Positions 13,246 through 51,761 of a stretch of 64,000 nucleotides of DNA are shown in pieces. Location: positions 13,687 to 77,686 of IMG/VR virus record IMGVR_UViG_2934377003_000001. One strand, written 5' to 3'. Under the pieces are notes generated by a model. It saw only the letters and a program-made list of their open reading frames with translations. It was not told where the DNA came from and did not search any database. How positions within the stretch are numbered: position 1 is the first letter of the stretch; each line of letters starts with the position of its first letter. The stretch is from a virus (lineage: Duplodnaviria; Caudoviricetes). Made by a program: the position numbers and the translations under genes.

Positions 13246-14034
13246 TCAGCCGCTGCCGAGGTAGGCGTTGAGCCTGCCCTCCTGCACGGCCTGAGTGATC
13301 TGCTTCGGGGTCATGCGCGCCACGTCCGCCGCTCCCAGCTGCCGCTTGCCGCCCGCTGCTCCGCCCATGTCCGCGCCGCCCGCAGGGGTCTCCGGCTTCT
13401 TCGGCTCGGGCGCCTTGGCCGCGAGCTTCGCGTTGCCGTCGACCGCCGCCTTCACGGCCTCGCCGACCTTCGCGTCGAAGTCGGCCGCGGTCGGGTCGAG
13501 TTTCGCGATGGCGTTGGCGAAGGAGCGTGAGTCGAGCAGGGCGTCGGGGTCGCCGCCGTGCTTTCCGGCGGTCTTGTAAACGGCGAGCTCCACCTGCGTC
13601 TGGCGGGCGCGATCGTCGGACGCCTTGGTCCGGGTCTGCTCCTCTTCCAGCTGCTGGGCGAGCTCTTCGGGGGTGGGCGGCTTGGCCTCGTCGGTGGTGA
13701 CGCCGAAGATCCCGGCCAGCTTCTTCATGAAGTCGGCCTGGTCGTCGGTGGCTTTCTTCTCTGCGGCCTGACGCTTCTGCTTCTCGGCTTCGACGTCGCC
13801 GCGGAGGTTCTCGACGAGCTTCTCGAACCGGGCAGGGTCGAAGTCGCCTTCGAACTTGGGCGCCTTGGCCTTGGGTTCGACGGTCGGCTCGGCGGACGGT
13901 GCCGGATCGGGAGGTGTGGCGGGTGCGGCCGGCGCTGGCGGCGTCGGTGCGGGGGCGCCTTCGGGTACGGGCGGGGTGGCCGGCTGGTTGCTCGGGTCCG
14001 CGGGCGTGCTCTGGGGCTGGGCGGGGGTCGTCAT
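13246..14034 (-). CDS. Capsid scaffolding protein
   Basis: Pro-rich N-terminus, coiled coil, DALLDSRSF; immediately upstream of the capsid gene. Confidence 0.85.
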   Translation of the reverse strand: MTTPAQPQSTPADPSNQPATPPVPEGAPAPTPPAPAAPATPPDPAPSAEPTVEPKAKAPKFEGDFDPARFEKLVENLRGDVEAEKQKRQAAEKKATDDQADFMKKLAGIFGVTTDEAKPPTPEELAQQLEEEQTRTKASDDRARQTQVELAVYKTAGKHGGDPDALLDSRSFANAIAKLDPTAADFDAKVGEAVKAAVDGNAKLAAKAPEPKKPETPAGGADMGGAAGGKRQLGAADVARMTPKQITQAVQEGRLNAYLGSG

Positions 14035-41600: not shown

Positions 41601-43465
41601 AGCGCCGACACCACGGCCGGGGTCCGGATCGTCTCGGGGAGGCGCTGCTCCCAGTAGTCGACCATCTGCCGGATACGGGCCACGACGGCACGCAGCCGGT
41701 CACGCTCCTCCCGCCGCTCGGTGGCAGCGTCGTACCAGTACTGCACGGCCTCAGCCGGGGTGTGCGGGGCGGTCATCGGGGTTCCTCCTGGTGGGTGGGT
41801 AGGGTTCGGGCACCGGCCGCCCGCGCACTTCGACTGCGCGGGCGGCCGGCCAGGGTTCACGGGGTGGCGGACTCGCAGCCGGGGTAGTCGTCTGGCAGTC
41901 GCGGCTCGATGTACGCGTGCCGGTAGTGCGGGATCGGATCGACGGCCGGAAGCAGGACGCGCGCGTGCCGGTCCAGTTCGTTGCCGTCGCGGTCGTAGCA
42001 GACCGGTTCGGCGGTCTCGTACTGCGCCTGCCAGGCAGCGAACTCAACGTCGGTGAGTTCCTTCGGTGGGGTCTCGCCGCCGTACCAGTCCTCGGTGATC
42101 CCGGCCTGCTTCAACTGCTCATCGCCCATCTCGTTGACGATGTGCTCGGTCGCGGCCTGTACCTCGAAACACTCGGGCTGGTCGATGTGCTCGTAGGCGT
42201 CGCGGAGTTCTTCGAGGCAGGCGACCATCCGCTCCTGCCAGGCGACCGGCATGGACTGCATGAGGGTGCGGTGCAGCACCTGGTAGTTGCTGTAGCTGAG
42301 GCTGAACCAGCCGTGGATGGGGCCGTCGGTGCGCTGGTAGGGCTGCTCAGTCATTGGGTCGCTCCTGGTGGTGTGGGTGTCGGATTATGTGCGGTTTCGA
42401 CGCCACCGGTCCTCAAGCGGAACCGGCGGGCAGTGTCGGGTCGTCGCGCCGCGTGTAGGGCTGCGGGACGGGTCCGGGGGTCTGGAACCAGGTGACGGGG
42501 ACCGCGCCGGGCGTGGTCTCGGCGGCGGCCGTGACCGTCCATCCGCCGTCCGCGCGCCGGGTGAACAGGGCGTGGCCGGCGTCGAGCCAGTAGTAGGCGT
42601 CCCGCAGATCCGCAGTGGCGGCGTCAAGCAGGTTGGGCTGCCCGCAGACGCGCCGGTAGTACTGGTCCAGCGCCTCAAGGGCCTGGCGCTTGTCGCCGGT
42701 CAGGGCGATGGCGTCGCCGGTATCTCCGAGGGAGGCGACGAGGACGCCGTCGTAGCAGTCCTCCATGTCGTCGGGGCCGGGGGTGAAGACGCGGCCCGTG
42801 TCGGCGGCGAGTCCGTACCAGTAGCTGCCGGGGGCGTCGTGGGTGGTGTTGGTCATCGGGGTCTCCTTGGCGGGTAGGGTCCGGCGGAGACCCGGCGTGT
42901 TAGAGGCACGCCGGGTCGCCTCGTTCACGGGGTGGGGGCAGCGGTCTTCGCCGCGGCGTGCTGCTCGCACTCCCAGTTGGCGCCGACGTGCTCGCGGTAG
43001 TGGGCCATGGTCATCAGTTCGGTTCGCAGCCCGGCCTTGGCGGCGCGGTCACGGTCACGCTTCGTCGGGTTCATGTGCCGGTGGGCCTGGTCGGCGGTGG
43101 CCAGGACCCAGCCGCTGTCGTCCCTGGCCTCCACGACGGCAACGGCGGCGGCGACGATGCAGCCGCACGGGCGCCGCTCGAACCATCCGCAGGCGTCGAG
43201 CGGAACGTGCTCGCCGTCGACAACGACGGTCAGGTTGGTGGTCATTGCTTCTCCTTCGGGTTGGCTGGTCACAGCGACCAGAGGCTGGGCTGGTGGTGGT
43301 TCAGGTCGAGGGCGGTCTGGCCGTCGCAGTGGACGACTGCGGGTTCGGCCACCCGGGCAGGCGCCGGACGGGCCGGGCGGGGTTGAGTCGGCGGGCACAG
43401 ACCGGTCCGAGGCCGGTGGGCGACGGGCGGCGTAGGCGCCGGCCGCACGCCGTGCAGCGGGACAT
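38597..43465 (-). other. Cluster of hypothetical phage genes (38869-39255, DUF3307-like membrane protein 39799-40251, 40686-40958, 40955-41776, 41857-42354, 42413-42856, 42925-43245)
   Basis: Coupled ORFs with RBSs; AHEVADHWVQ...THYIAD...DQAWH in 39799-40251. Confidence 0.6.
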
Positions 43466-44514
43466 CAGGCGGCCTCCGCGATCTGACCGCTGGACAGCGG
43501 CAGCCCGAACGCGGCGGCGATGACGTGCTCGGCCAGCAGGCAGGGCACGGCGTTGCCGATCTGTTCGAACTGCTTGGTGCGGCTCCCCCGGAACGGGTGA
43601 TCGGCGGGGAACGACTGGAGGATCGCCGCGTCCTGGACGGACAGGCGGATGGTGTCCCGGCGTCCGCCGCGGTAGGCGGGCAGGCTGTCGGCGTCGACGA
43701 TGCGGGTGCAGTCGATCCAGCGTCCGGCGTCGCGTTCGCCGTAGAGGGTGGCGCGGGCACCGGATCCGCCGACGCACGACGGATCGGGCCCGCCGGCTGC
43801 TGTGCCGACAGCGATGGTGAGCGCCGGCCGGGCAGTCATGCCCCAGCCGATCGCGTCGGCCATGGAAATCCACGGCTCCAGCCCGAAGACTTCCTGTACT
43901 TCGGTGACGCCCTTGCGGTACCGGTGGTGCGTGGGCTGCGGCAGCCGGGCCTCCCCGTCCAGGCTGGCGGCGAGAAGGGCACGCACCCGGGTCTGCGCGA
44001 CGCCGTACTCCTCGGCGGACAGTCGGCCGGTCGCCACGCTGTAGCCCTCGGCGCGCAGGAGTTCACCGAGCGCCTCCCACACGGGCAGCACCGTCGGCAC
44101 CTGCTCCAGGAGGATCGTCCGGTACGGGCGGCCGGCGTCCATCGCTTCCAGCGCCCACCGCAGCGGCTCCAGGACCAAGCCGGTCCGCTCGTCGTCGAAG
44201 CCGACGAGCGCCTCCCCGATGTCCTGGCGTGCGGCCAGCCGCCGTGCCAGGCCGAGGACGGTGTCCAGGGCGGCCCTGCCGCGGCCCTTGCCGCCAACGG
44301 AGAACGGCTGGCACGGCGGGGAGCCGATCATGTCGGTGGCGTCGGGGAAGTCTGCGGGCCCGTAGGCGCGGACGTCGCCCTCCACCGTGCGGAGCCCAGC
44401 GGCGCGGCGGGTCTCGCATGCGGCGTGATCGCGTTCGATGCCGGTCACGTCGAGACCGAGACGGGTGGCTCCCACGTCCCAGCCACCGGGACCGGCGAAC
44501 AAGTCGACGATCAT
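43465..44514 (-). CDS. DNA (cytosine-5) methyltransferase
   Basis: DLFAGPGG (motif I), GSPPCQPFS (IV), EQV (VI variant), QTRVR (VIII), LQSFP (IX), QIGNAVP (X). Confidence 0.93.
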   Translation of the reverse strand: MIVDLFAGPGGWDVGATRLGLDVTGIERDHAACETRRAAGLRTVEGDVRAYGPADFPDATDMIGSPPCQPFSVGGKGRGRAALDTVLGLARRLAARQDIGEALVGFDDERTGLVLEPLRWALEAMDAGRPYRTILLEQVPTVLPVWEALGELLRAEGYSVATGRLSAEEYGVAQTRVRALLAASLDGEARLPQPTHHRYRKGVTEVQEVFGLEPWISMADAIGWGMTARPALTIAVGTAAGGPDPSCVGGSGARATLYGERDAGRWIDCTRIVDADSLPAYRGGRRDTIRLSVQDAAILQSFPADHPFRGSRTKQFEQIGNAVPCLLAEHVIAAAFGLPLSSGQIAEAA

Positions 44515-46316
44515 GCGGCCTCCTCCGTGGTGTCGTCGCCGGCGCGGGTGTGGAGGTCCCGCAGCGCGTAGGCGGCCTGCTGCCGGACGACCCCGTTGCC
44601 GAGGGCACGGAGCATGGCGGGCCGTGTGAGGCCGGGCGTGTCGGTGACCCAGCCGTCGGGCAGGCCCATCAGCCATTCGGTGAAGACGGGGCTCAGACGT
44701 CCCAGAGCGTCGGTTGGCCAAGGGGCTCGTCGTCCGAGGACTCGCTCCCAGCGGCGGATGGCGGGTCCGTAGTCGCCCCAGTCGAGGTCGGGTTCGCCTT
44801 CTCGGAGGTCGAGAACTGTTCGACGATCCGCCTGCTGCTGGGCGGCAGATCCTCGTTCGCCGGCAGGTTGTCGGGGCGTTCCCCTGTCGCCAGCTTTGCG
44901 ATCTCCGTCAGGCCGAGGGAGCTGGACTGTCCTCCGCCCGTCCGCCGGCCGTTCCCCGTGGACGAGGTGAGGGCCCTGGTGCTCTTCTCCGTCGCGCTGG
45001 CTGTCGGTGTCGGCAGCAGCTTCGGCGGCGCAGACGGGGCAGTCATCGGGGCAGAATCCGGGCTGTCCGAGTTCGGGGTCGGTGCAGTGAAGGCATCCGT
45101 TGCATAGCCCGTCGGGGGCGTGCTCGGACTTGAGGCAGAGGCAGGTGGGGCAGGTGGTTTCGGCAGGAGCTGCGCTGCCGCGCTCGGCAGCATCAGGTCG
45201 CCCTTGCTGCCGCGCTGGTTCGGTCCGCCCTTCGTTCCGTCCGTGGCTCTGGGGGTCGGCAGCAGCTTCACGGTTATCGCCAGCGGCGTGCCCTGCCCGT
45301 TCCCGTTGATCCCCTTCTCCAGGTTGCGCTGCCGCCTGGCTTCCCAGGACTCCAGCGACTCCCCGTCGTTCGGGTTCGACGCTGCTGGCGTCGGCAGCAG
45401 CTTCACCTGGCCGTCCGAGTTCGGGGTCGGTGCAGCCGTGGCATCCTGCGCAGAATCCTCCGGCGTCGTGCATCCACTCGCCGCATCCGCAGGTCGGGCA
45501 GACGGGCTCGTCGGCGACGGCAGGCAGTTCACGACGACCTCGTTCAGCGGCCGGGAGTTCCGGTCCATCAGGTTCGACTCGCCCGACTTCCAGTCCGGGG
45601 CGGCCGGGGTCGGCAGCATCCGCGCCACCGATTCCAGCATCGGCGAGCGCCGAGCCCGCTCCGATGGGCAGTCGCCGCGGTCCATGTCCGAAGCCTTCGG
45701 TGTCGGAAGCAGCCGGCCAGGCGCGGATGATGATGCGGCGGCGGCGGTGGGGGGCGCCGACTTCGTCCGCGCCGTAGCGGCCCCATTCCGCATCGAACCC
45801 GAGGCTGGCCAGGTCCCCAAGAACGGCTCCGCATGCCCGCAGTACAGGCTCAGCGTGTCCGTCTCCCACGCAGTACGGGCAGGGTTCCATGTCGCTGGCA
45901 GCCGGCGCCGAGAGGAGCCCTTCGACATTTTCGATCACCACGAGTTTCGGTTGGAGGATGGAGATGGCGTGGGCCATGTGGTTCCACAGCCCGGAGCGGG
46001 TTTCGGGGGTAAGGCCAGCGCGGCGGCCAGCCGAAGAGACGTCGGTGCAGGGGAAGCCGCCGGTGAGGATGTCGACCGGCCCGTGCTCGTCGAGGACGCC
46101 CTGCCAGTCGATCTTTGTGATGTCGCCGAGGTTCGGGACGTTGGGCCAGTGCCGGGCGAGGATCTTCGCCGCGTACTGGTTCTTGTCTTCCTTGCCGTTC
46201 TTGTCCGGCGGCTCGTACTGCGAGTGCCAAACGACCTCGGCGTCGTACACGTCCATCACGGCCAGGTCCAGGGCCCCGGTGCCGGTGAACAGGGAGCCGA
46301 TACGCAGCGGGCTCAT
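44511..46316 (-). CDS. DNA (cytosine-5) methyltransferase with a long variable region
   Basis: SLFTGTGA (I), GGFPCTDVS (IV), ENV (VI), HRRRRI (VIII), EWLMGLP (IX), ALGNGVV (X). Confidence 0.9.
   Translation of the reverse strand: MSPLRIGSLFTGTGALDLAVMDVYDAEVVWHSQYEPPDKNGKEDKNQYAAKILARHWPNVPNLGDITKIDWQGVLDEHGPVDILTGGFPCTDVSSAGRRAGLTPETRSGLWNHMAHAISILQPKLVVIENVEGLLSAPAASDMEPCPYCVGDGHAEPVLRACGAVLGDLASLGFDAEWGRYGADEVGAPHRRRRIIIRAWPAASDTEGFGHGPRRLPIGAGSALADAGIGGADAADPGRPGLEVGRVEPDGPELPAAERGRRELPAVADEPVCPTCGCGEWMHDAGGFCAGCHGCTDPELGRPGEAAADASSVEPERRGVAGVLGSQAAAQPGEGDQRERAGHAAGDNREAAADPQSHGRNEGRTEPARQQGRPDAAERGSAAPAETTCPTCLCLKSEHAPDGLCNGCLHCTDPELGQPGFCPDDCPVCAAEAAADTDSQRDGEEHQGPHLVHGERPADGRRTVQLPRPDGDRKAGDRGTPRQPAGERGSAAQQQADRRTVLDLREGEPDLDWGDYGPAIRRWERVLGRRAPWPTDALGRLSPVFTEWLMGLPDGWVTDTPGLTRPAMLRALGNGVVRQQAAYALRDLHTRAGDDTTEEAA
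44693..45928 (-). CDS. Overprinted LLPTP-repeat protein nested in the methyltransferase gene, in a different frame
   Basis: 411-aa ORF with TWPASGSMRNG and 5-7 (L/M)LPTP repeats resembling phage methyltransferase TRD-type repeats. Confidence 0.65.
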   Translation of the reverse strand: MSKGSSRRRLPATWNPARTAWETDTLSLYCGHAEPFLGTWPASGSMRNGAATARTKSAPPTAAAASSSAPGRLLPTPKASDMDRGDCPSERARRSPMLESVARMLPTPAAPDWKSGESNLMDRNSRPLNEVVVNCLPSPTSPSARPADAASGCTTPEDSAQDATAAPTPNSDGQVKLLPTPAASNPNDGESLESWEARRQRNLEKGINGNGQGTPLAITVKLLPTPRATDGTKGGPNQRGSKGDLMLPSAAAQLLPKPPAPPASASSPSTPPTGYATDAFTAPTPNSDSPDSAPMTAPSAPPKLLPTPTASATEKSTRALTSSTGNGRRTGGGQSSSLGLTEIAKLATGERPDNLPANEDLPPSSRRIVEQFSTSEKANPTSTGATTDPPSAAGSESSDDEPLGQPTLWDV

Positions 46317-47472: not shown

Positions 47473-48090
47473 TCACGACGCCTCCTCGACGCCGGGACCT
47501 TCGTCCGTCTGGCTGCCGAGGATGCGGGCCGAGGCCGCCTTGCGGCGTTCAATCTCGGCCTGCTCGTCACGGCCAGACCGTGCCGAGTGGGGAGCGCGTT
47601 CCCGACCGCTGTCCATCCGGCAGGGCCTGCCTATCGGTGCTCCGCACGCGGGGCACTCGATGCCCAGCGGGCCCGGACGTCTTACGACGGCCACCTCGTC
47701 CGGGATCTCCCGGCCGACGCCGGCCAGGAGCTCAGCGACAGGACGGCGCTTCATCACCTGACCGTCCGCTGCACGAGTGCGCTGACCACGGAGGGCCGCC
47801 AGGTAGGCCTGGACGTCGTCCGGGTCGGCGTCCGGCACCTCGGCGGGCAGGCCAGGCCCCTGAATGTCGGAGGCGCGGTCGTCCCGGGTGCGTCGGATCT
47901 CCGCAATGATCTCGGCGGGGCTGACGAACGGCTGCTTGCGGGCTACGGCGGCGGCGGCGGCACGGGCATCGGCGAGGGCGAAGTCGGCGAGGACGTCGTG
48001 CCAGGCATCCGGGGTGTACTCGTCGAACTTCTGCTGGGGGCAGAGGGCTCGCACGTAGCGGGCGAGCACTACAGCTTCGTCGGGGGTCAC
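47473..48090 (-). CDS. Helicase loader/inhibitor-like protein with a C-terminal Zn finger
   Basis: Directly downstream of the initiator; DAWHDVL...FVSPAEI; CPAC...C...H. Confidence 0.6.
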   Translation of the reverse strand: MTPDEAVVLARYVRALCPQQKFDEYTPDAWHDVLADFALADARAAAAAVARKQPFVSPAEIIAEIRRTRDDRASDIQGPGLPAEVPDADPDDVQAYLAALRGQRTRAADGQVMKRRPVAELLAGVGREIPDEVAVVRRPGPLGIECPACGAPIGRPCRMDSGRERAPHSARSGRDEQAEIERRKAASARILGSQTDEGPGVEEAS

Positions 48091-49055
48091 TGATCCTCCT
48101 GCATGCGGGACTTGGCGCGCTGCATGGCGCGGTCGAAGAGGTCGTTGGTTTCCTGCTGCTGACGGGGGACGGGGCCGCTCTGCCCGACTGCGGTGGGCAA
48201 GTACGCGATTCCGTTCTGCTCCTCGGGGGCCTCGAGGGTTCGCCAGCCCTGCACCCAGGCGGAGGCCCCGGCCGGTACGCCTTTGAGGCGGGCGGAGTTA
48301 ACGGCGAAGGCGACCATCGCGGCGACGCCGACGCGGTTGATGGCTTGCCGCGTGTACTCCCAGCCGGACTCTCGGAGGTCCCAGCCGACGCCTGCGAGGC
48401 CCGCGTTGGCGATGCCCCGCTTCAGTTCGGCGAGGGGGTCGGGGAGGCCGTCCGCTCGCGGCTCGCTAGCAGCACCAGTACTTCCGTAGGAAGTACTGGG
48501 GTATGGAGTGGCAGCGGCATGGATACCCGTGACGGAAGCGTCACGCCGTGACAACCCGCTCTGACCTGCACTGCTGTCGGAACTTTGAGATTTTTCCGAA
48601 GCACTTTCACTTTTTTTGGAGGACGAATCGAAGGTAAAGTCCTTCGATTCGTCGGCGTTTCCATCGCCTTTTCGGTCGCTGGGACGCCCCCCGCGGGCGC
48701 CCTCGCGGTGCTTCGACTGGCGGTCGCGGGCCTTCTTCCGCTCGGCCTCGGCGCGGGCGCGGGAGGTGTTGCGGCCGTCGTCGAGGAAGTTGTGGAAGAC
48801 ATAGTCGCCGGGCGCCGGGGCGGGGCATCCGTCGGGGCAGTTGTGGCCGTGCTCGTGCCACAGGCCGGCCTTGACGAGCTTGGCCGCCTGCGGCTTGGTG
48901 CCGTACAGCTCGGCGACGACGCCAGGCACGATGCCGTCGGTCAGGTGCTGTGCGGCGTAGGAGCCGCAGCGCAGCCACAGACCGAGCGCAGCGTTCCCAG
49001 CCTTGATCAGCTTCGGGTGGGAGTGCGCCTTGTCGTCGATCCTGAACCAGGGCAT
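48087..49055 (-). CDS. Replication initiator protein
   Basis: MPWFRIDD...HPK...GLW...LTDG N-terminus typical of actinophage replication initiators; low-complexity middle. Confidence 0.75.
   Translation of the reverse strand: MPWFRIDDKAHSHPKLIKAGNAALGLWLRCGSYAAQHLTDGIVPGVVAELYGTKPQAAKLVKAGLWHEHGHNCPDGCPAPAPGDYVFHNFLDDGRNTSRARAEAERKKARDRQSKHREGARGGRPSDRKGDGNADESKDFTFDSSSKKSESASEKSQSSDSSAGQSGLSRRDASVTGIHAAATPYPSTSYGSTGAASEPRADGLPDPLAELKRGIANAGLAGVGWDLRESGWEYTRQAINRVGVAAMVAFAVNSARLKGVPAGASAWVQGWRTLEAPEEQNGIAYLPTAVGQSGPVPRQQQETNDLFDRAMQRAKSRMQEDQ
48475..48660. other. Candidate replication origin inside the initiator gene
   Basis: AT-rich tract 48580-48620; inverted repeats at 48475-48499 and 48622-48653; CGTGAC/GTCACG repeats at 48528-48552. 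Confidence 0.5.
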
Positions 49056-49086
49056 CAGTTCTCCCTGGAGGTTTCGGTGTGGTCCA

Positions 49087-50409
49087 TCAGGCGGCACCGC
49101 CCAGCGGCTGCGCGGCGATCTCCAGAACGGAGAGGTGCCGCGGAAGGCAGGTGGCGAGGTCGGTGTCCTGGTAGGCGCCTGCTGCGGCTGCGGCGGCGAG
49201 GACGTCGTTGAGGTAGAAGTCGCCGTCGGCGACCACGCGGTTGTAGTGGTTCATGAACGCGCTTCGCTCTTCGGCCTCGGGCCACCGGTTGGCACCCGCG
49301 CGGAAGCTGCGCGACCAAAGGTCGACAGCACGGTGCCGGAATGCATCGACGCCGGTGTACTCAAGTTCGTTCGGGCGCAGTCCGTGGTGCAGCTCCGAGG
49401 AGTGGTGGGAGCCGGCGAGGAGTGCGGCGCGCCTGATGCGGTCCAGCGATACGCCGCCATCCGCGAGGTCGTCGACCTGGTTCTGGACGACCCTGAGCAG
49501 GAACGTGTCCGGTGGCTCAATGTACGTGGATAGCCCGTCGAGCTCGGTCCAGGCGTCGCACCACTCGATGACGACGTCGGCACGTTCCTGGTCGGTGGCC
49601 CCGGCCATCGCATCCTGGATGGTTGAGACGCCTGTAGATCCGCCGAAGATGGCCGCCCTGATCAACTGCTCGGGGTCTGTCCATTCGCTACATGCCTCAA
49701 GTTCCATGAGGCTGCGCGCGAACTGGGCGCGCAGTTCGCCCGAGGGCTCCGCTTCCAGATCAGATGCCCACGCGCGGGCCCAGCGGTCGACGGCCGCCTG
49801 TCCGATCAGGCTGAGCGAGCCGGGGGCCTTCTTCGTTGACGGGGTGACGATCTCTTGCGCGCGCTCATGGAGTTCCTTGACCATGCGCCAGCCGATTCCG
49901 CAGGCGTAGCGAAAGGTGTTGTCGATCCTGACCGTGGGGTTGGTCATGGCCTTCTCGACGATGTCGGGCCAGACTTCCTGCGGCAGGCCGGCCGCATAGA
50001 AGGCGTCGAGGCTGCCCTTCCAACTGTCGGGCAGTTCGACGCGCTCGGTTTTCCAGCCGTTCTCTCGAGTCCATCCGCTCCAGGTCTTCCTGAAGGACTC
50101 GCGGTACTCGTTCTTCGGCGCCTGCAGCTGGCGGAGATCCTCCGCCGCCTGCTTCATGGCGTCAGCCCAGCGGAGGGCGTCGTCGCTGACGTTGGCTACG
50201 ACGGCGGAGTCGACGGTTGCGCTGCTCTTGCCGCTGTTGCACGGCTCGCAGCTGGCGACGAGGTTGTCGGGCGTGTCGGTGCCGCCGAGCGCGACGGGGG
50301 TGACGTGATCGACGCGCAGCGGGACGTCCGGGGCGGACGTGCCGCAGTAGCGGCAGGTGTGGTTGTCCCTGCGGAGGATCTCGTAGCGGAGGCGCTTGGA
50401 GACGGCCAT
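49087..50409 (-). CDS. HNH endonuclease with a long repeated C-terminal extension
   Basis: RYEILRRDNHTCRYCG...DHV.P...GG...DNLVASCEPCNSGK. Confidence 0.88.
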   Translation of the reverse strand: MAVSKRLRYEILRRDNHTCRYCGTSAPDVPLRVDHVTPVALGGTDTPDNLVASCEPCNSGKSSATVDSAVVANVSDDALRWADAMKQAAEDLRQLQAPKNEYRESFRKTWSGWTRENGWKTERVELPDSWKGSLDAFYAAGLPQEVWPDIVEKAMTNPTVRIDNTFRYACGIGWRMVKELHERAQEIVTPSTKKAPGSLSLIGQAAVDRWARAWASDLEAEPSGELRAQFARSLMELEACSEWTDPEQLIRAAIFGGSTGVSTIQDAMAGATDQERADVVIEWCDAWTELDGLSTYIEPPDTFLLRVVQNQVDDLADGGVSLDRIRRAALLAGSHHSSELHHGLRPNELEYTGVDAFRHRAVDLWSRSFRAGANRWPEAEERSAFMNHYNRVVADGDFYLNDVLAAAAAAGAYQDTDLATCLPRHLSVLEIAAQPLGGAA

Positions 50410-50488
50410 TGAGTGGTGTCCTTTGATCGTTCTGCGCTGGTCGTTCTGAGGGCGCAAAGGGGTAGACGGGGGGCTCGACTTGACGCCT

Positions 50489-50562
50489 CCGTGTACGTAC
50501 ACGACCTTACCGGTCGTGTACGTACACGGCAACGCCCTATCTGGCGCTCGTGTACACACACG
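50489..50562. promoter_or_regulatory. Palindromic operators CGTGTACGTACACG (two copies plus one variant)
   Basis: Copies at 50490-50503 and 50515-50528 together form an 18-bp perfect inverted repeat; variant at 50549-50562. Confidence 0.8.
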
Positions 50563-50577
50563 CGCTACGCTCGGACC

Positions 50578-50829
50578 ATGGCCCCGAAGGAGACCCACAC
50601 GACCGCCCGTCCCGTCCGTATCCCGCAGAAGGACTGGGATGACTTCGGCGTGCTCGTGGGAGAACGGGAGCGGTCCCGCCTGGTCCGCGAATTCATCGCC
50701 TGGTACCTGCGCAGGCCGAAGGCGACGCTCCCCAAGCGGCCAGACGCGTCCCCGCGGCCTGAAGTGACTCTCCGGCGGGACGACGACCCCACAGTGTTCT
50801 TCGAAGCGAAGTACAACCGGAACGCCTGA
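50578..50829 (+). CDS. Ribbon-helix-helix-like regulator
   Basis: RPVRIPQKDWDDF...RSRLVREFIAWY; TACGCT -10 box 6 nt upstream (leaderless). Confidence 0.7.
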   Translation: MAPKETHTTARPVRIPQKDWDDFGVLVGERERSRLVREFIAWYLRRPKATLPKRPDASPRPEVTLRRDDDPTVFFEAKYNRNA

Positions 50830-50858
50830 CATCCCTTCCTCCTTTCGTTCGTCCTCCG

Positions 50859-50886
50859 GGCCCCGCCACGCGGCGGGGCCTTTGTC
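50859..50886 (+). terminator. Intrinsic terminator
   Basis: ggccccgcc-acgc-ggcggggcc followed by tttgt. Confidence 0.65.
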
Positions 50887-50891
50887 GTGGG

Positions 50892-51761
50892 TTAGGCGGC
50901 GGCAACCTGCTTCCGCTCGCGTTTCTGTCCGGTGCGCCATTCCTGGACGATCTGCCGGACGGTGGAGATGGAGACCTCGCTGTTGAGCCGGCCGACGATC
51001 TGCTTGGGGCTGTAGCCGCACCAGGCGAGGTGTTCGATCTCGGAACGGCGGAGATCGGCGAGTTCGAAGAAGTTGAGCTCGCGGTCCGCTGTGTCCGGGT
51101 CGAACGCGGGGTCGTCGATGTGGCCGTAGTCCTCCCACCACTGGGGGTCTCGCCAGCCTTTGCTGCGGGCTACGTTGAGCGTTCGCTTCGTGTGCCTGTC
51201 CGGTTCGGGCGGTGTGGTTCGCAGTTGCGCGTAGGCGGCGGCGATCCGGTTGGCGAGGGTTCGGCGAATGGTGGGCTGCCGGCCGTTGGCGATGGACATG
51301 ATCCGGTTGGGTGACGTGTCGGCGGCCGTGGAGAGGGTGGCGTAGGAGTGGCCTTGGGCCGAGAGTGCCTGGAGTCGGCGGGTGCTGCCGGTGCAGTCGA
51401 TGTACTGGCCGGGGTCGCCGTCGCTGGGGTTCGGGACGTTGAGGATCTTCGCTTCGGTTTCGTGGCGGATCTTCGTGCGTTGGCCGTGGTAGATGGCGAT
51501 GAGGTTGCTGAACCACACGCCGGTTGCCGCTTCGAGGCTGTCCCAGCTCATCGTCTTGTGGAGGAGGCGAAGGTGGGCTTGGGCCTTGTCGGGGCTGGTG
51601 AAGGGGCTGCGTCCGAGTTCGCGGTTGATGCGGTTGTGCTTCTGGTGGCGGTTGCGGGCGGTCCGGCAGGGGGTGCAGTTGCAGCGGGGCCAGCGGCCGG
51701 GACTTCCGTATCCACGTGCGCTGGTTCCGTGCGCCGGCCGGGGCTTGGCGGCGGTGGTCAC
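50892..51761 (-). CDS. Multi-HTH DNA-binding protein with an N-terminal HG...CxCxxC motif
   Basis: HGT...CNCTPC; two HTH-like segments; STRRLQAL motif. Confidence 0.7.
   Translation of the reverse strand: MTTAAKPRPAHGTSARGYGSPGRWPRCNCTPCRTARNRHQKHNRINRELGRSPFTSPDKAQAHLRLLHKTMSWDSLEAATGVWFSNLIAIYHGQRTKIRHETEAKILNVPNPSDGDPGQYIDCTGSTRRLQALSAQGHSYATLSTAADTSPNRIMSIANGRQPTIRRTLANRIAAAYAQLRTTPPEPDRHTKRTLNVARSKGWRDPQWWEDYGHIDDPAFDPDTADRELNFFELADLRRSEIEHLAWCGYSPKQIVGRLNSEVSISTVRQIVQEWRTGQKRERKQVAAA

Follow-up and report, generated by a model that had tools for sequence, protein, structure and literature searches.

The cytosine-5 (C5) DNA methyltransferases of the Bacillus phages SPR, phi3T and rho11s are orphan single chains, which carry several short recognition domains in tandem within their variable region. 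Genes embedded in other genes are also known from phages, like in the Rz/Rz1 pair of lambda, where one gene lies in the +1 frame of the other and the two products work together. Bacteria and phages rarely have long same-strand overlaps in which selection acts on both frames, and where these occur, a young gene with a poorly structured product usually accompanies an older one. C5 methyltransferases naturally composed of two polypeptides are established (PMC3404938; PMC2836561). The two polypeptides of M.AquI are divided within the variable region, and complementation has also been described between fragments of monomeric C5 methyltransferases (PMC3404938). The beta polypeptide of M.EcoHK31I is encoded inside the alpha gene in another frame and carries motif IX, while alpha has the recognition domain (PMC2836561), and the enzyme needs both products (PMC2836561; PMC3404938). 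In this work a C5 methyltransferase gene with a second open reading frame (ORF) nested in it was analysed, which is located on a stretch of 64,000 nucleotides (positions 13,687 to 77,686 of the IMG/VR record IMGVR_UViG_2934377003_000001; Duplodnaviria, Caudoviricetes), in the following called the window. The source record is a 77.7-kb provirus, and this prophage is of actinobacterial origin, the host probably being a Streptomyces.

The outer ORF A encodes a polypeptide termed alpha and the inner ORF B one termed beta. As ORF B is wholly nested in ORF A, both frames are jointly open over 1236 nucleotides (nt), and the GC content of this two-frame region is about 67-75%. The open frame of ORF A reaches further upstream than its ATG. 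Coordinates, sizes and nesting of both ORFs (Table 1) agree with an initial annotation, which had been made from the letters of the window, and the origin of the ORF B start codon which it had proposed is seen in the sequence as well: the ATG at 45928-45926 takes its A and T from the end of the Asn codon AAT and its G from the beginning of the Val codon GTC, both in the Glu-Asn-Val (ENV) of motif VI. We consider it likely, with a probability of roughly 0.7, that the locus encodes a two-polypeptide and probably multispecific C5 methyltransferase, in which alpha contributes all catalytic motifs and beta is the recognition subunit.

Table 1. Features of the nested methyltransferase locus and genes in its surroundings, in positions of the window. 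Coordinates of motifs and modules were counted by hand from sequences and alignments, and residue numbers of alpha were taken from the invariant columns of its alignment.
Feature	Position	Strand	Description
ORF A (alpha)	44511-46316	minus	601 aa from ATG plus stop; motifs I-VIII, 307-residue spacer, motifs IX-X
Alpha N-terminal catalytic part	45711-46316	minus	A residues 1-202; motif IV Pro-Cys at 46047-46052, ENV at 45924-45932, motif VIII at 45735-45758
Shine-Dalgarno-like GGTGATC	45933-45939	minus	4 nt upstream of the B ATG, inside Val-Ile codons of motif VI
ORF B (beta)	44693-45928	minus	411 aa, +1 frame relative to A; Trp-rich N-terminal module, five LLPTP-type modules, two linkers, tail
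Doubly constrained segment	45713-45928	minus	B residues 1-72 (Trp...Trp...WPxSGxMRxG module) over A motifs VI-VIII
Beta module 1	45620-45712	minus	B residues 73-103; same module type in L019
Beta module 2	45527-45619	minus	B residues 104-134; related modules in many loci, in frame in single-chain P0057, P0097, P0103
Cys-rich unit 1	45414-45500	minus	A residues 273-301, CxxCxC...H...CxxCxxC; third-position GC 0.76 in A, 0.66 in B
Beta module 3 ("NPND" module)	45266-45400	minus	B residues 177-221; group A, 16 loci; near-universal
Beta module 4	45170-45265	minus	B residues 222-253; group B, 10 loci; in frame in single-chain P0093, P0099, P0103, P0106, P0107
Cys-rich unit 2	45066-45152	minus	A residues 389-417; third-position GC 0.83 in A, 0.66 in B
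Beta module 5	44816-45019	minus	B residues 304-371; group M, shared with L003; in frame in single-chain P0099, P0107
Alpha spacer	44790-45710	minus	A residues 203-509; -1-frame reading of the beta modules, except for the two Cys units
Beta tail/alpha C-terminal overlap	44693-44789	minus	A is the constrained frame
Alpha C-terminal domain	44514-44789	minus	A residues 510-601, motifs IX-X; Gly-Asn-Gly-Val-Val at 44586-44600
Second C5 methyltransferase	43465-44514	minus	PF00145; phrog_116; directly after ORF A
Replication-initiator-like gene	48087-49097		
HNH ORF	49087-51516	minus	809 aa; central HNH endonuclease domain (phrog_14314, E 1e-67)

For ORF B no match was found in Pfam. The only match in four family searches was phrog_1008, annotated as "DNA methyltransferase" (E 7e-19), and the best NCBIfam result was a fimbrial-chaperone model at chance level (E 0.061, 12.7 bits vs a cut-off of 417). 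Homologues are numerous: 1509 proteins at E<=1e-3 were obtained among 8000 scored candidates, and in the full library 3731 representative clusters matched at the same threshold. Seven single chains with PF00145 were present among the 120 matches listed for ORF B, and in these the LLPTP-type modules stand in frame between motif VIII and the C-terminal domain. The Trp-rich module is found in frame directly after motif VIII in the single chains P0097, P0057, P0103, P0106, P0188, P0214 and P0230 as well as at locus L029. The 235 relatives which were retrieved comprise 151 proteins consisting of Trp module and recognition modules only, 45 with recognition modules only, 18 with Trp module, recognition modules and C-terminal domain, 14 with N-terminal part, modules and C-terminal domain, and seven other combinations. 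Positions 173-321 of phrog_1008 match A residues 436-592 (E 8.7e-33) and its positions 72-208 match B residues 10-145, so that one methyltransferase family is split over two frames. These relationships indicate that ORF B is a real coding sequence, homologous to the in-frame recognition regions of single-chain relatives. An insertion of a homing endonuclease was rejected: ORF B has no endonuclease match in Pfam, PHROGs and NCBIfam and matches phrog_1008.

The modules of beta form a variable array. In 22 loci 114 modules were assigned to 21 recurring groups and 10 singletons; each locus carries 3-8 of them in varying order. The residues of module 3 are invariant or nearly so in 20 aligned beta proteins. 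At its end ORF B stops at the first stop of the +1 frame, located at a conserved Leu-Ser/Thr codon pair, and the beta tail appears to be a mere read-on to this stop.

The catalytic parts are found in alpha. PF00145 matches A residues 5-200 in Pfam (E 5e-24), and TIGR00675 matches ORF A with E 6e-23, but with 82 bits under its curated cut-off of 100.65. The N-terminal part falls in phrog_363 and phrog_116 of PHROGs, and the C-terminal end matches the phage methyltransferase families phrog_1008, phrog_116 and phrog_10223. Columns invariant in the alpha alignment are P89 and C90, E129, N130 and V131, H190, R192 and R194, and G573, N574, G575, V576 and V577. The Pfam match, the phrog families and the invariant residues thus bear out the motifs I-VIII and IX-X which had been assigned to this frame. 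Between motifs VIII and IX no recognition domain was detected in the chain of alpha itself, where frame A holds a low-confidence spacer. An AlphaFold2 model of alpha, calculated with a 20-sequence alignment and evaluated in blocks of 10 residues, gave a predicted local distance difference test (pLDDT) score of mostly 73-97 for residues 1-204, with 55-56 over residues 141-160, of 23-57 for residues 201-490 and of about 71-93 for residues 491-590. Judged from this model, the spacer is probably disordered.

The two-frame layout was examined in 31 sources, including 10 loci from genomes, 18 from viral contigs and two Streptomyces phages. All three segments, namely the N-terminal part of alpha, beta and the C-terminal part of alpha, are present in 25 of them; L010, L011, L012, L027, L029 and L030 are without one or more of the three. 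In 24 of the 25 complete loci both parts of alpha share one frame and beta lies in the +1 frame, with no stop in A, none in B and 2-10 stops in the third frame of the middle region. These 24 loci, among them the Streptomyces phages Darolandstone and Raleigh, reach down to about 32-41% identity in the N-terminal part. The single exception is L026 with a mixed layout, in which later modules are shifted into the A frame and a short beta remains. The initial annotation had named a nested frame that is not conserved as an argument against its proposal; the nested frame is kept in 24 of the 25 complete loci.

This conservation bears on the idea of a decayed or mis-sequenced single-chain methyltransferase with compensating indels, whose second ORF would be a by-product of about 70% GC. 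Long spurious ORFs are indeed common in high-GC DNA, and the database proteins P0046 and P0156 look like fusions of the two frames, possibly due to assembly errors. However, the same frame arrangement occurs in the 24 complete loci, which derive from isolate genomes, cultured phages and metagenomes, and the avoidance of stops, the frame-specific purifying selection and the conserved start described below contradict decay. We therefore regard this explanation as hardly credible. A sequencing error or a pseudogene was ruled out by the conserved layout, and a chance ORF of high-GC DNA by homology, stop avoidance and substitution pattern.

Since the -1 frame of GC-rich genes is often open by chance, frame A was tested in several ways. 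In eight other genes of the window 27 stops were counted in 2619 codons of the -1 frame, which for the window alone results in P = 0.044 for 303 stop-free codons. The following analyses comprise 22 loci; omitted were L017, whose sequence is here identical to that of L016, and L024, which is L023 in truncated form. When the Cys units were masked and each 15-nt context was counted only once, none of 191 unique T-ending codons of B is followed by AA, AG or GA vs 43.1 expected (P about 6e-22). In a shuffle of the synonymous codons of B with 1000 trials, A stayed open in 0.3% of the trials for the window, and the per-locus probability was 0.000-0.575. The shuffle figure is inflated, because the TGC codons of the A-coded Cys units supply T-ending codons of B, and the masked test is therefore the fairer one. 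The results argue that the spacer reading of frame A is kept stop-free by selection. At L029, which encodes a single chain, the +1 frame over motifs VI-VIII contains six stops in about 57 codons.

Codon usage and substitutions were used to assign the constraint to one frame or the other. In 14 close loci codons 1-120 of A were divided into eight 15-codon blocks, of which seven have a third-position GC of 0.88-0.97 and one, codons 91-105, has 0.80. The value drops to 0.42-0.71 in codons 121-180, under the Trp module of B, is 0.64-0.77 where the B tail overlaps the C-terminal domain and reaches 0.86-0.90 past the B stop. Substitutions were compared in eight pairs of close loci. Within the modules, differences amount to 0.18-0.42 per site at the third position of B vs 0.02-0.14 at the other two, so that the residues of the A-frame spacer are free to change. 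In the last 33 codons of B the differences lie at the third position of A (0.065-0.33 per site), which makes A the constrained frame in the overlap of beta tail and C-terminal domain. The first 66 codons of B show fewer differences, which are spread over all three codon positions. According to this pattern B would be the coding frame in the modules, A in the Cys units and from the C-terminal domain on, and both over motifs VI-VIII. Judged by these comparisons both frames are shown to be conserved and under frame-specific purifying selection.

A comparison of substitutions per frame across relatives had been suggested by the initial annotation, and its outcome, with B-frame constraint in the modules and A-frame constraint in the Cys unit and the C-terminal overlap, fits the proposal of two selected frames. 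Two other parts of that annotation have to be modified. It had described dual coding along 1.2 kb, while codon usage and substitutions indicate double constraint only over the first 72 codons of B (doubly constrained segment in Table 1). It had furthermore described an LLPTP protein overprinted on the variable region of the methyltransferase; the nested frame stands, but the LLPTP protein is itself the variable region and frame A represents a spacer there.

A potential start signal of beta is encoded within motif VI. The TGA contained in GGTGATC closes frame B just upstream of its start, and the duplex predicted between GGTGATC and the 3' tail of the 16S ribosomal RNA (rRNA) has an energy of -13.6 kcal/mol, while the mean over the gene is -4.6; among 357 segments tested along the gene, only 0.3% reach this strength. 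In all 22 loci the start codon is preceded by an rRNA-complementary sequence with predicted energies of -9.9 to -18.2 kcal/mol, and in the 16 loci which were tested against their own gene 0.3-8.9% of the segments are equally strong. Beta starts at the ATG of the Asn (AAT) and Val codons of ENV in 16 of the 22 loci, including two cultured phages, with GGTGATC or a near variant before it. In the remaining six loci the Asn codon is AAC and the beta start lies elsewhere; in L023 and L025 alpha contains an insertion with AAAGGAG and, after 9 nt, GTG, whereas L028 has a GTG directly behind ENV, and L007 and L008 an ATG upstream of ENV.

The start signal is one of the observations which distinguish a separate beta from a single polypeptide made by two programmed frameshifts, +1 after motif VIII from A into the LLPTP modules and -1 back before motifs IX-X. 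Such a product would have exactly the domain order of existing single-chain relatives, and in the window the first LLPTP codons follow directly after motif VIII in the +1 frame. Upstream of any shift site, however, a conserved B module covers motifs VI-VIII, distorts the codon usage of A and has its own start signal. This mechanism would not require an open frame A in the spacer, yet stops are avoided there, and a frame-A-coded Cys unit lies inside the spacer. A -1 heptamer (X XXY YYZ) in B phase near the end of B is missing in 19 of the 22 loci and occurs at differing places in the other three, and frame A has neither a stop nor another obvious stall site at the proposed +1 position. No conserved slippery site was found at the frame junctions, -1 heptamers being scanned in the 22 loci and +1 sites by eye only. 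Codon usage, heptamer scan and stop avoidance thus disfavour a double frameshift, and we consider it very improbable.

Two Cys-rich units had initially been assigned to the methyltransferase frame, and both are present in alpha. Altogether nine such units were found over eight of the 22 loci, two of them in the window. Their Cys and His residues are conserved in frame A, whereas frame B reads through them as a variable linker rich in Pro, Ser, Thr and Ala (B residues 135-176 at unit 1, B residues 254-303 at unit 2). In the one homologous unit which could be compared (L005 vs L014), 8 of 23 sites differ at the third position of A and 1 of 23 at the first. A search of a Cys unit and of the Trp module against Pfam and NCBIfam gave only matches below threshold, led by PF23903, "Phage zinc binding domain", with E 0.059 and 13.7 bits vs a cut-off of 27. 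The pLDDT of the Cys units in the AlphaFold2 model is only about 50-57. From their pattern alone, they are possibly zinc-binding.

The position of the beta modules relative to the catalytic core was approached with an AlphaFold2 model of the single-chain relative P0097. The core was predicted with confidence, the Trp module (residues about 205-255) forms a confident beta-sheet element with a pLDDT of 76-94, and the universal module is helical and moderately confident. In a second look at the top 1000 chains from Foldseek, the model was aligned with M.HhaI over 246 residues (Z 24.3, root mean square deviation 3.2 Å). On the basis of the model, the Trp module probably docks on the catalytic core.

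The proposed two-subunit enzyme would be produced as follows. Ribosomes starting at 46316 would make alpha with motifs I-VIII, a spacer of roughly 300 residues and motifs IX-X, and internal initiation at the 45928 ATG inside ENV, guided by GGTGATC, would make beta in the +1 frame. The Trp-rich beta-sheet module of beta would dock on the catalytic core, with the five LLPTP-type recognition modules in tandem behind it. In this way alpha would receive in trans, from beta, the variable region which in single-chain relatives stands between motifs VIII and IX, and alpha and beta together would make up the active enzyme. With its shuffled set of modules the phage could probably methylate several target sequences and thereby evade several restriction systems of the host. 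A heterodimeric, possibly multispecific methyltransferase with its recognition modules in the nested protein had been suggested at the outset, and the comparative evidence favours this reading.

Several points weigh against it. Translation of both frames, association of alpha and beta, activity and one specificity per module are inferred from sequence comparison, and a look for RNA runs recorded for this DNA gave none. Most LLPTP modules are of low confidence in the P0097 model, and to our knowledge there is no solved or biochemically tested precedent for a core with motifs I-VIII and IX-X in one chain whose recognition domain is provided by another chain. Modules are shared among the loci by descent, so that the loci do not represent independent trials; duplicate contexts were removed, and some shared ancestry remains. 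The 16S rRNA 3' tail used as probe was not taken from this host. Moreover, beta may be accessory and not essential in L026, prophi104-2 and Shauna1, as these loci also have recognition modules in the frame of alpha. There alpha passes a short -1-frame spacer into its own in-frame modules, and a short beta with the Trp module and one or two further modules remains.

These layouts also touch the possibility that both frames are translated, but that beta is no methyltransferase subunit and has its own role, e.g., in DNA binding or anti-restriction, with an alpha that is weak, non-specific or otherwise partnered. Besides the relatives whose alpha has own in-frame modules, the 151 beta-only proteins called by gene finders among the 235 retrieved relatives would agree with an independent protein. 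On the other hand, the same modules are an integral part of single-chain methyltransferases between motifs VIII and IX, and the alpha of the window is without a recognition module of its own. In Mycobacterium phage ByChance (L031) alpha ends soon after motif VIII, and the +1 ORF comprises Trp module, recognition modules and motifs IX-X. With motifs IX-X in the +1 ORF, beta must be translated there for any enzyme to be formed. An independent role of beta is in our view improbable.

For the ByChance region L031:604-1684 the annotation gives two methylases, genes 63 and 64, separated by a gap. Gene 64 is part of a +1 ORF that reaches back upstream over the end of gene 63 and contains the Trp and recognition modules; gene 64 starts about 300 nt after the ORF start and represents only its last 127 codons. 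In Mycobacterium phage Shauna1 an 8-nt near-repeat is located at the stop of the short beta (L033:1290-1345). Without this near-repeat, the last module of beta and the first in-frame module of alpha would be joined in one frame. It looks like the footprint of an indel that moved the downstream modules into the alpha frame. Indels at module borders probably move modules between frames.

Three further arrangements were observed. In the viral contig L027 (2317-3567) a LAGLIDADG-type endonuclease-like domain lies in the beta frame upstream of the Trp module, and the alpha frame is open across this insertion as low-complexity sequence. The insertion resembles the hidden-endonuclease inserts described for another actinophage methylase (PMC11855218). 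In a more distant relative, L030:1461-2450, the modules are of the WPTP type. Its recognition ORF continues in the same frame into the C-terminal domain, whereas a different frame is open for the N-terminal catalytic domain, which represents a split layout outside the actinophage group. The database proteins P0046 and P0156 are chimeras which cross from the frame of alpha to that of beta; the change comes directly behind motif VIII in P0046 and halfway through the doubly coded segment in P0156. Indels from assembly or natural fusions may account for them.

Taken together, the layouts could be joined in a broader scheme, which we put forward tentatively and regard as rather doubtful. The locus would be an interleaved dual-coding gene, in which 1.2 kb alternate between a domain in one frame and a linker in the other, with about 70 codons doubly constrained. 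Overprinting of motifs VI-VIII in their +1 frame may have given rise to the Trp module, which may then have been unpacked into the main frame of single-chain relatives by duplication and frameshift. When the in-frame Trp module of L029 was read in the -1 frame for remnants of motifs VII-VIII, a faint resemblance was seen, which equals that expected from the codon relationship alone. In the same scheme the nested arrangement would be ancestral to part of the family, and frame-switching indels would routinely move modules between the subunits; the 8-nt repeat at the beta stop of Shauna1 is an apparent example.

The neighbours of the locus in the window form a replication and recombination module with an HNH protein, a replication initiator, an exonuclease and the second C5 methyltransferase. 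The ATG of the latter overlaps the stop of ORF A as ATGA, and the ORF upstream of A ends likewise on the start of A. These overlaps on both sides of ORF A suggest that the methyltransferase gene cluster is a translationally coupled operon. Further upstream the HNH ORF precedes the replication-initiator-like gene. Both have a third-position GC of 0.73-0.80, below that of nearby genes with 0.90-0.97.

As to the annotation of such loci, beta is missed or shortened: for Darolandstone and Raleigh only the outer gene is listed, and gene 64 of ByChance is too short. The 3731 representative clusters matching beta point to a widespread layout. If the proposed reading is true, the locus would be a natural example of a C5 methyltransferase with three-part topology, in which one chain forms the core and a second one holds the recognition array. 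It would likewise provide a system for swapping recognition modules and a clean test case for two frames sharing one sequence, and the annotation of many actinophage methyltransferases would have to be corrected. No published description of this layout was found in a search that left out subscription journals, REBASE and supplements, and a frameshifting review (PMC5009743) was seen to hold nothing on these genes.

Compared with the known systems, the tandem array of 3-8 modules per locus is similar to the multispecific enzymes of the Bacillus phages, a likeness drawn by description and not by module homology; those enzymes are single chains, whereas the array lies on beta here. Unlike the embedded gene in the Rz/Rz1 pair, which has a lysis function and a much shorter overlap, the nested frame of this locus codes for a conserved component of a well-known enzyme family, namely its recognition part. 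The ShiLan-type phage methylase also has a second ORF hidden in another frame, and its host frame is stop-free and predicted to loop out (PMC11855218; background on the hidden endonuclease insert in PMC9957025). The hidden ORF of that methylase, which belongs to a different family, is a mobile homing endonuclease, while the nested ORF of the window would be part of the enzyme. The ByChance relative, with motifs I-VIII in alpha and recognition modules together with motifs IX-X in beta, is like M.AquI in its polypeptide split, which was the basis of this comparison and not the gene layout. The 18 retrieved proteins with Trp module, recognition modules and C-terminal domain agree with such a split as well. 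In the window, in contrast to M.AquI, motifs IX-X are back in the alpha frame and beta is wholly nested. M.EcoHK31I, with a second ORF wholly inside a C5 methyltransferase gene in another frame, is the nearest precedent. The analogy to it which the initial annotation had drawn holds for the gene layout but not for the division of labour: compared by description only, motifs I-X including motif IX belong to alpha here, and the recognition modules, together with the module overlapping motifs VI-VIII, are provided by a beta of 411 aa.

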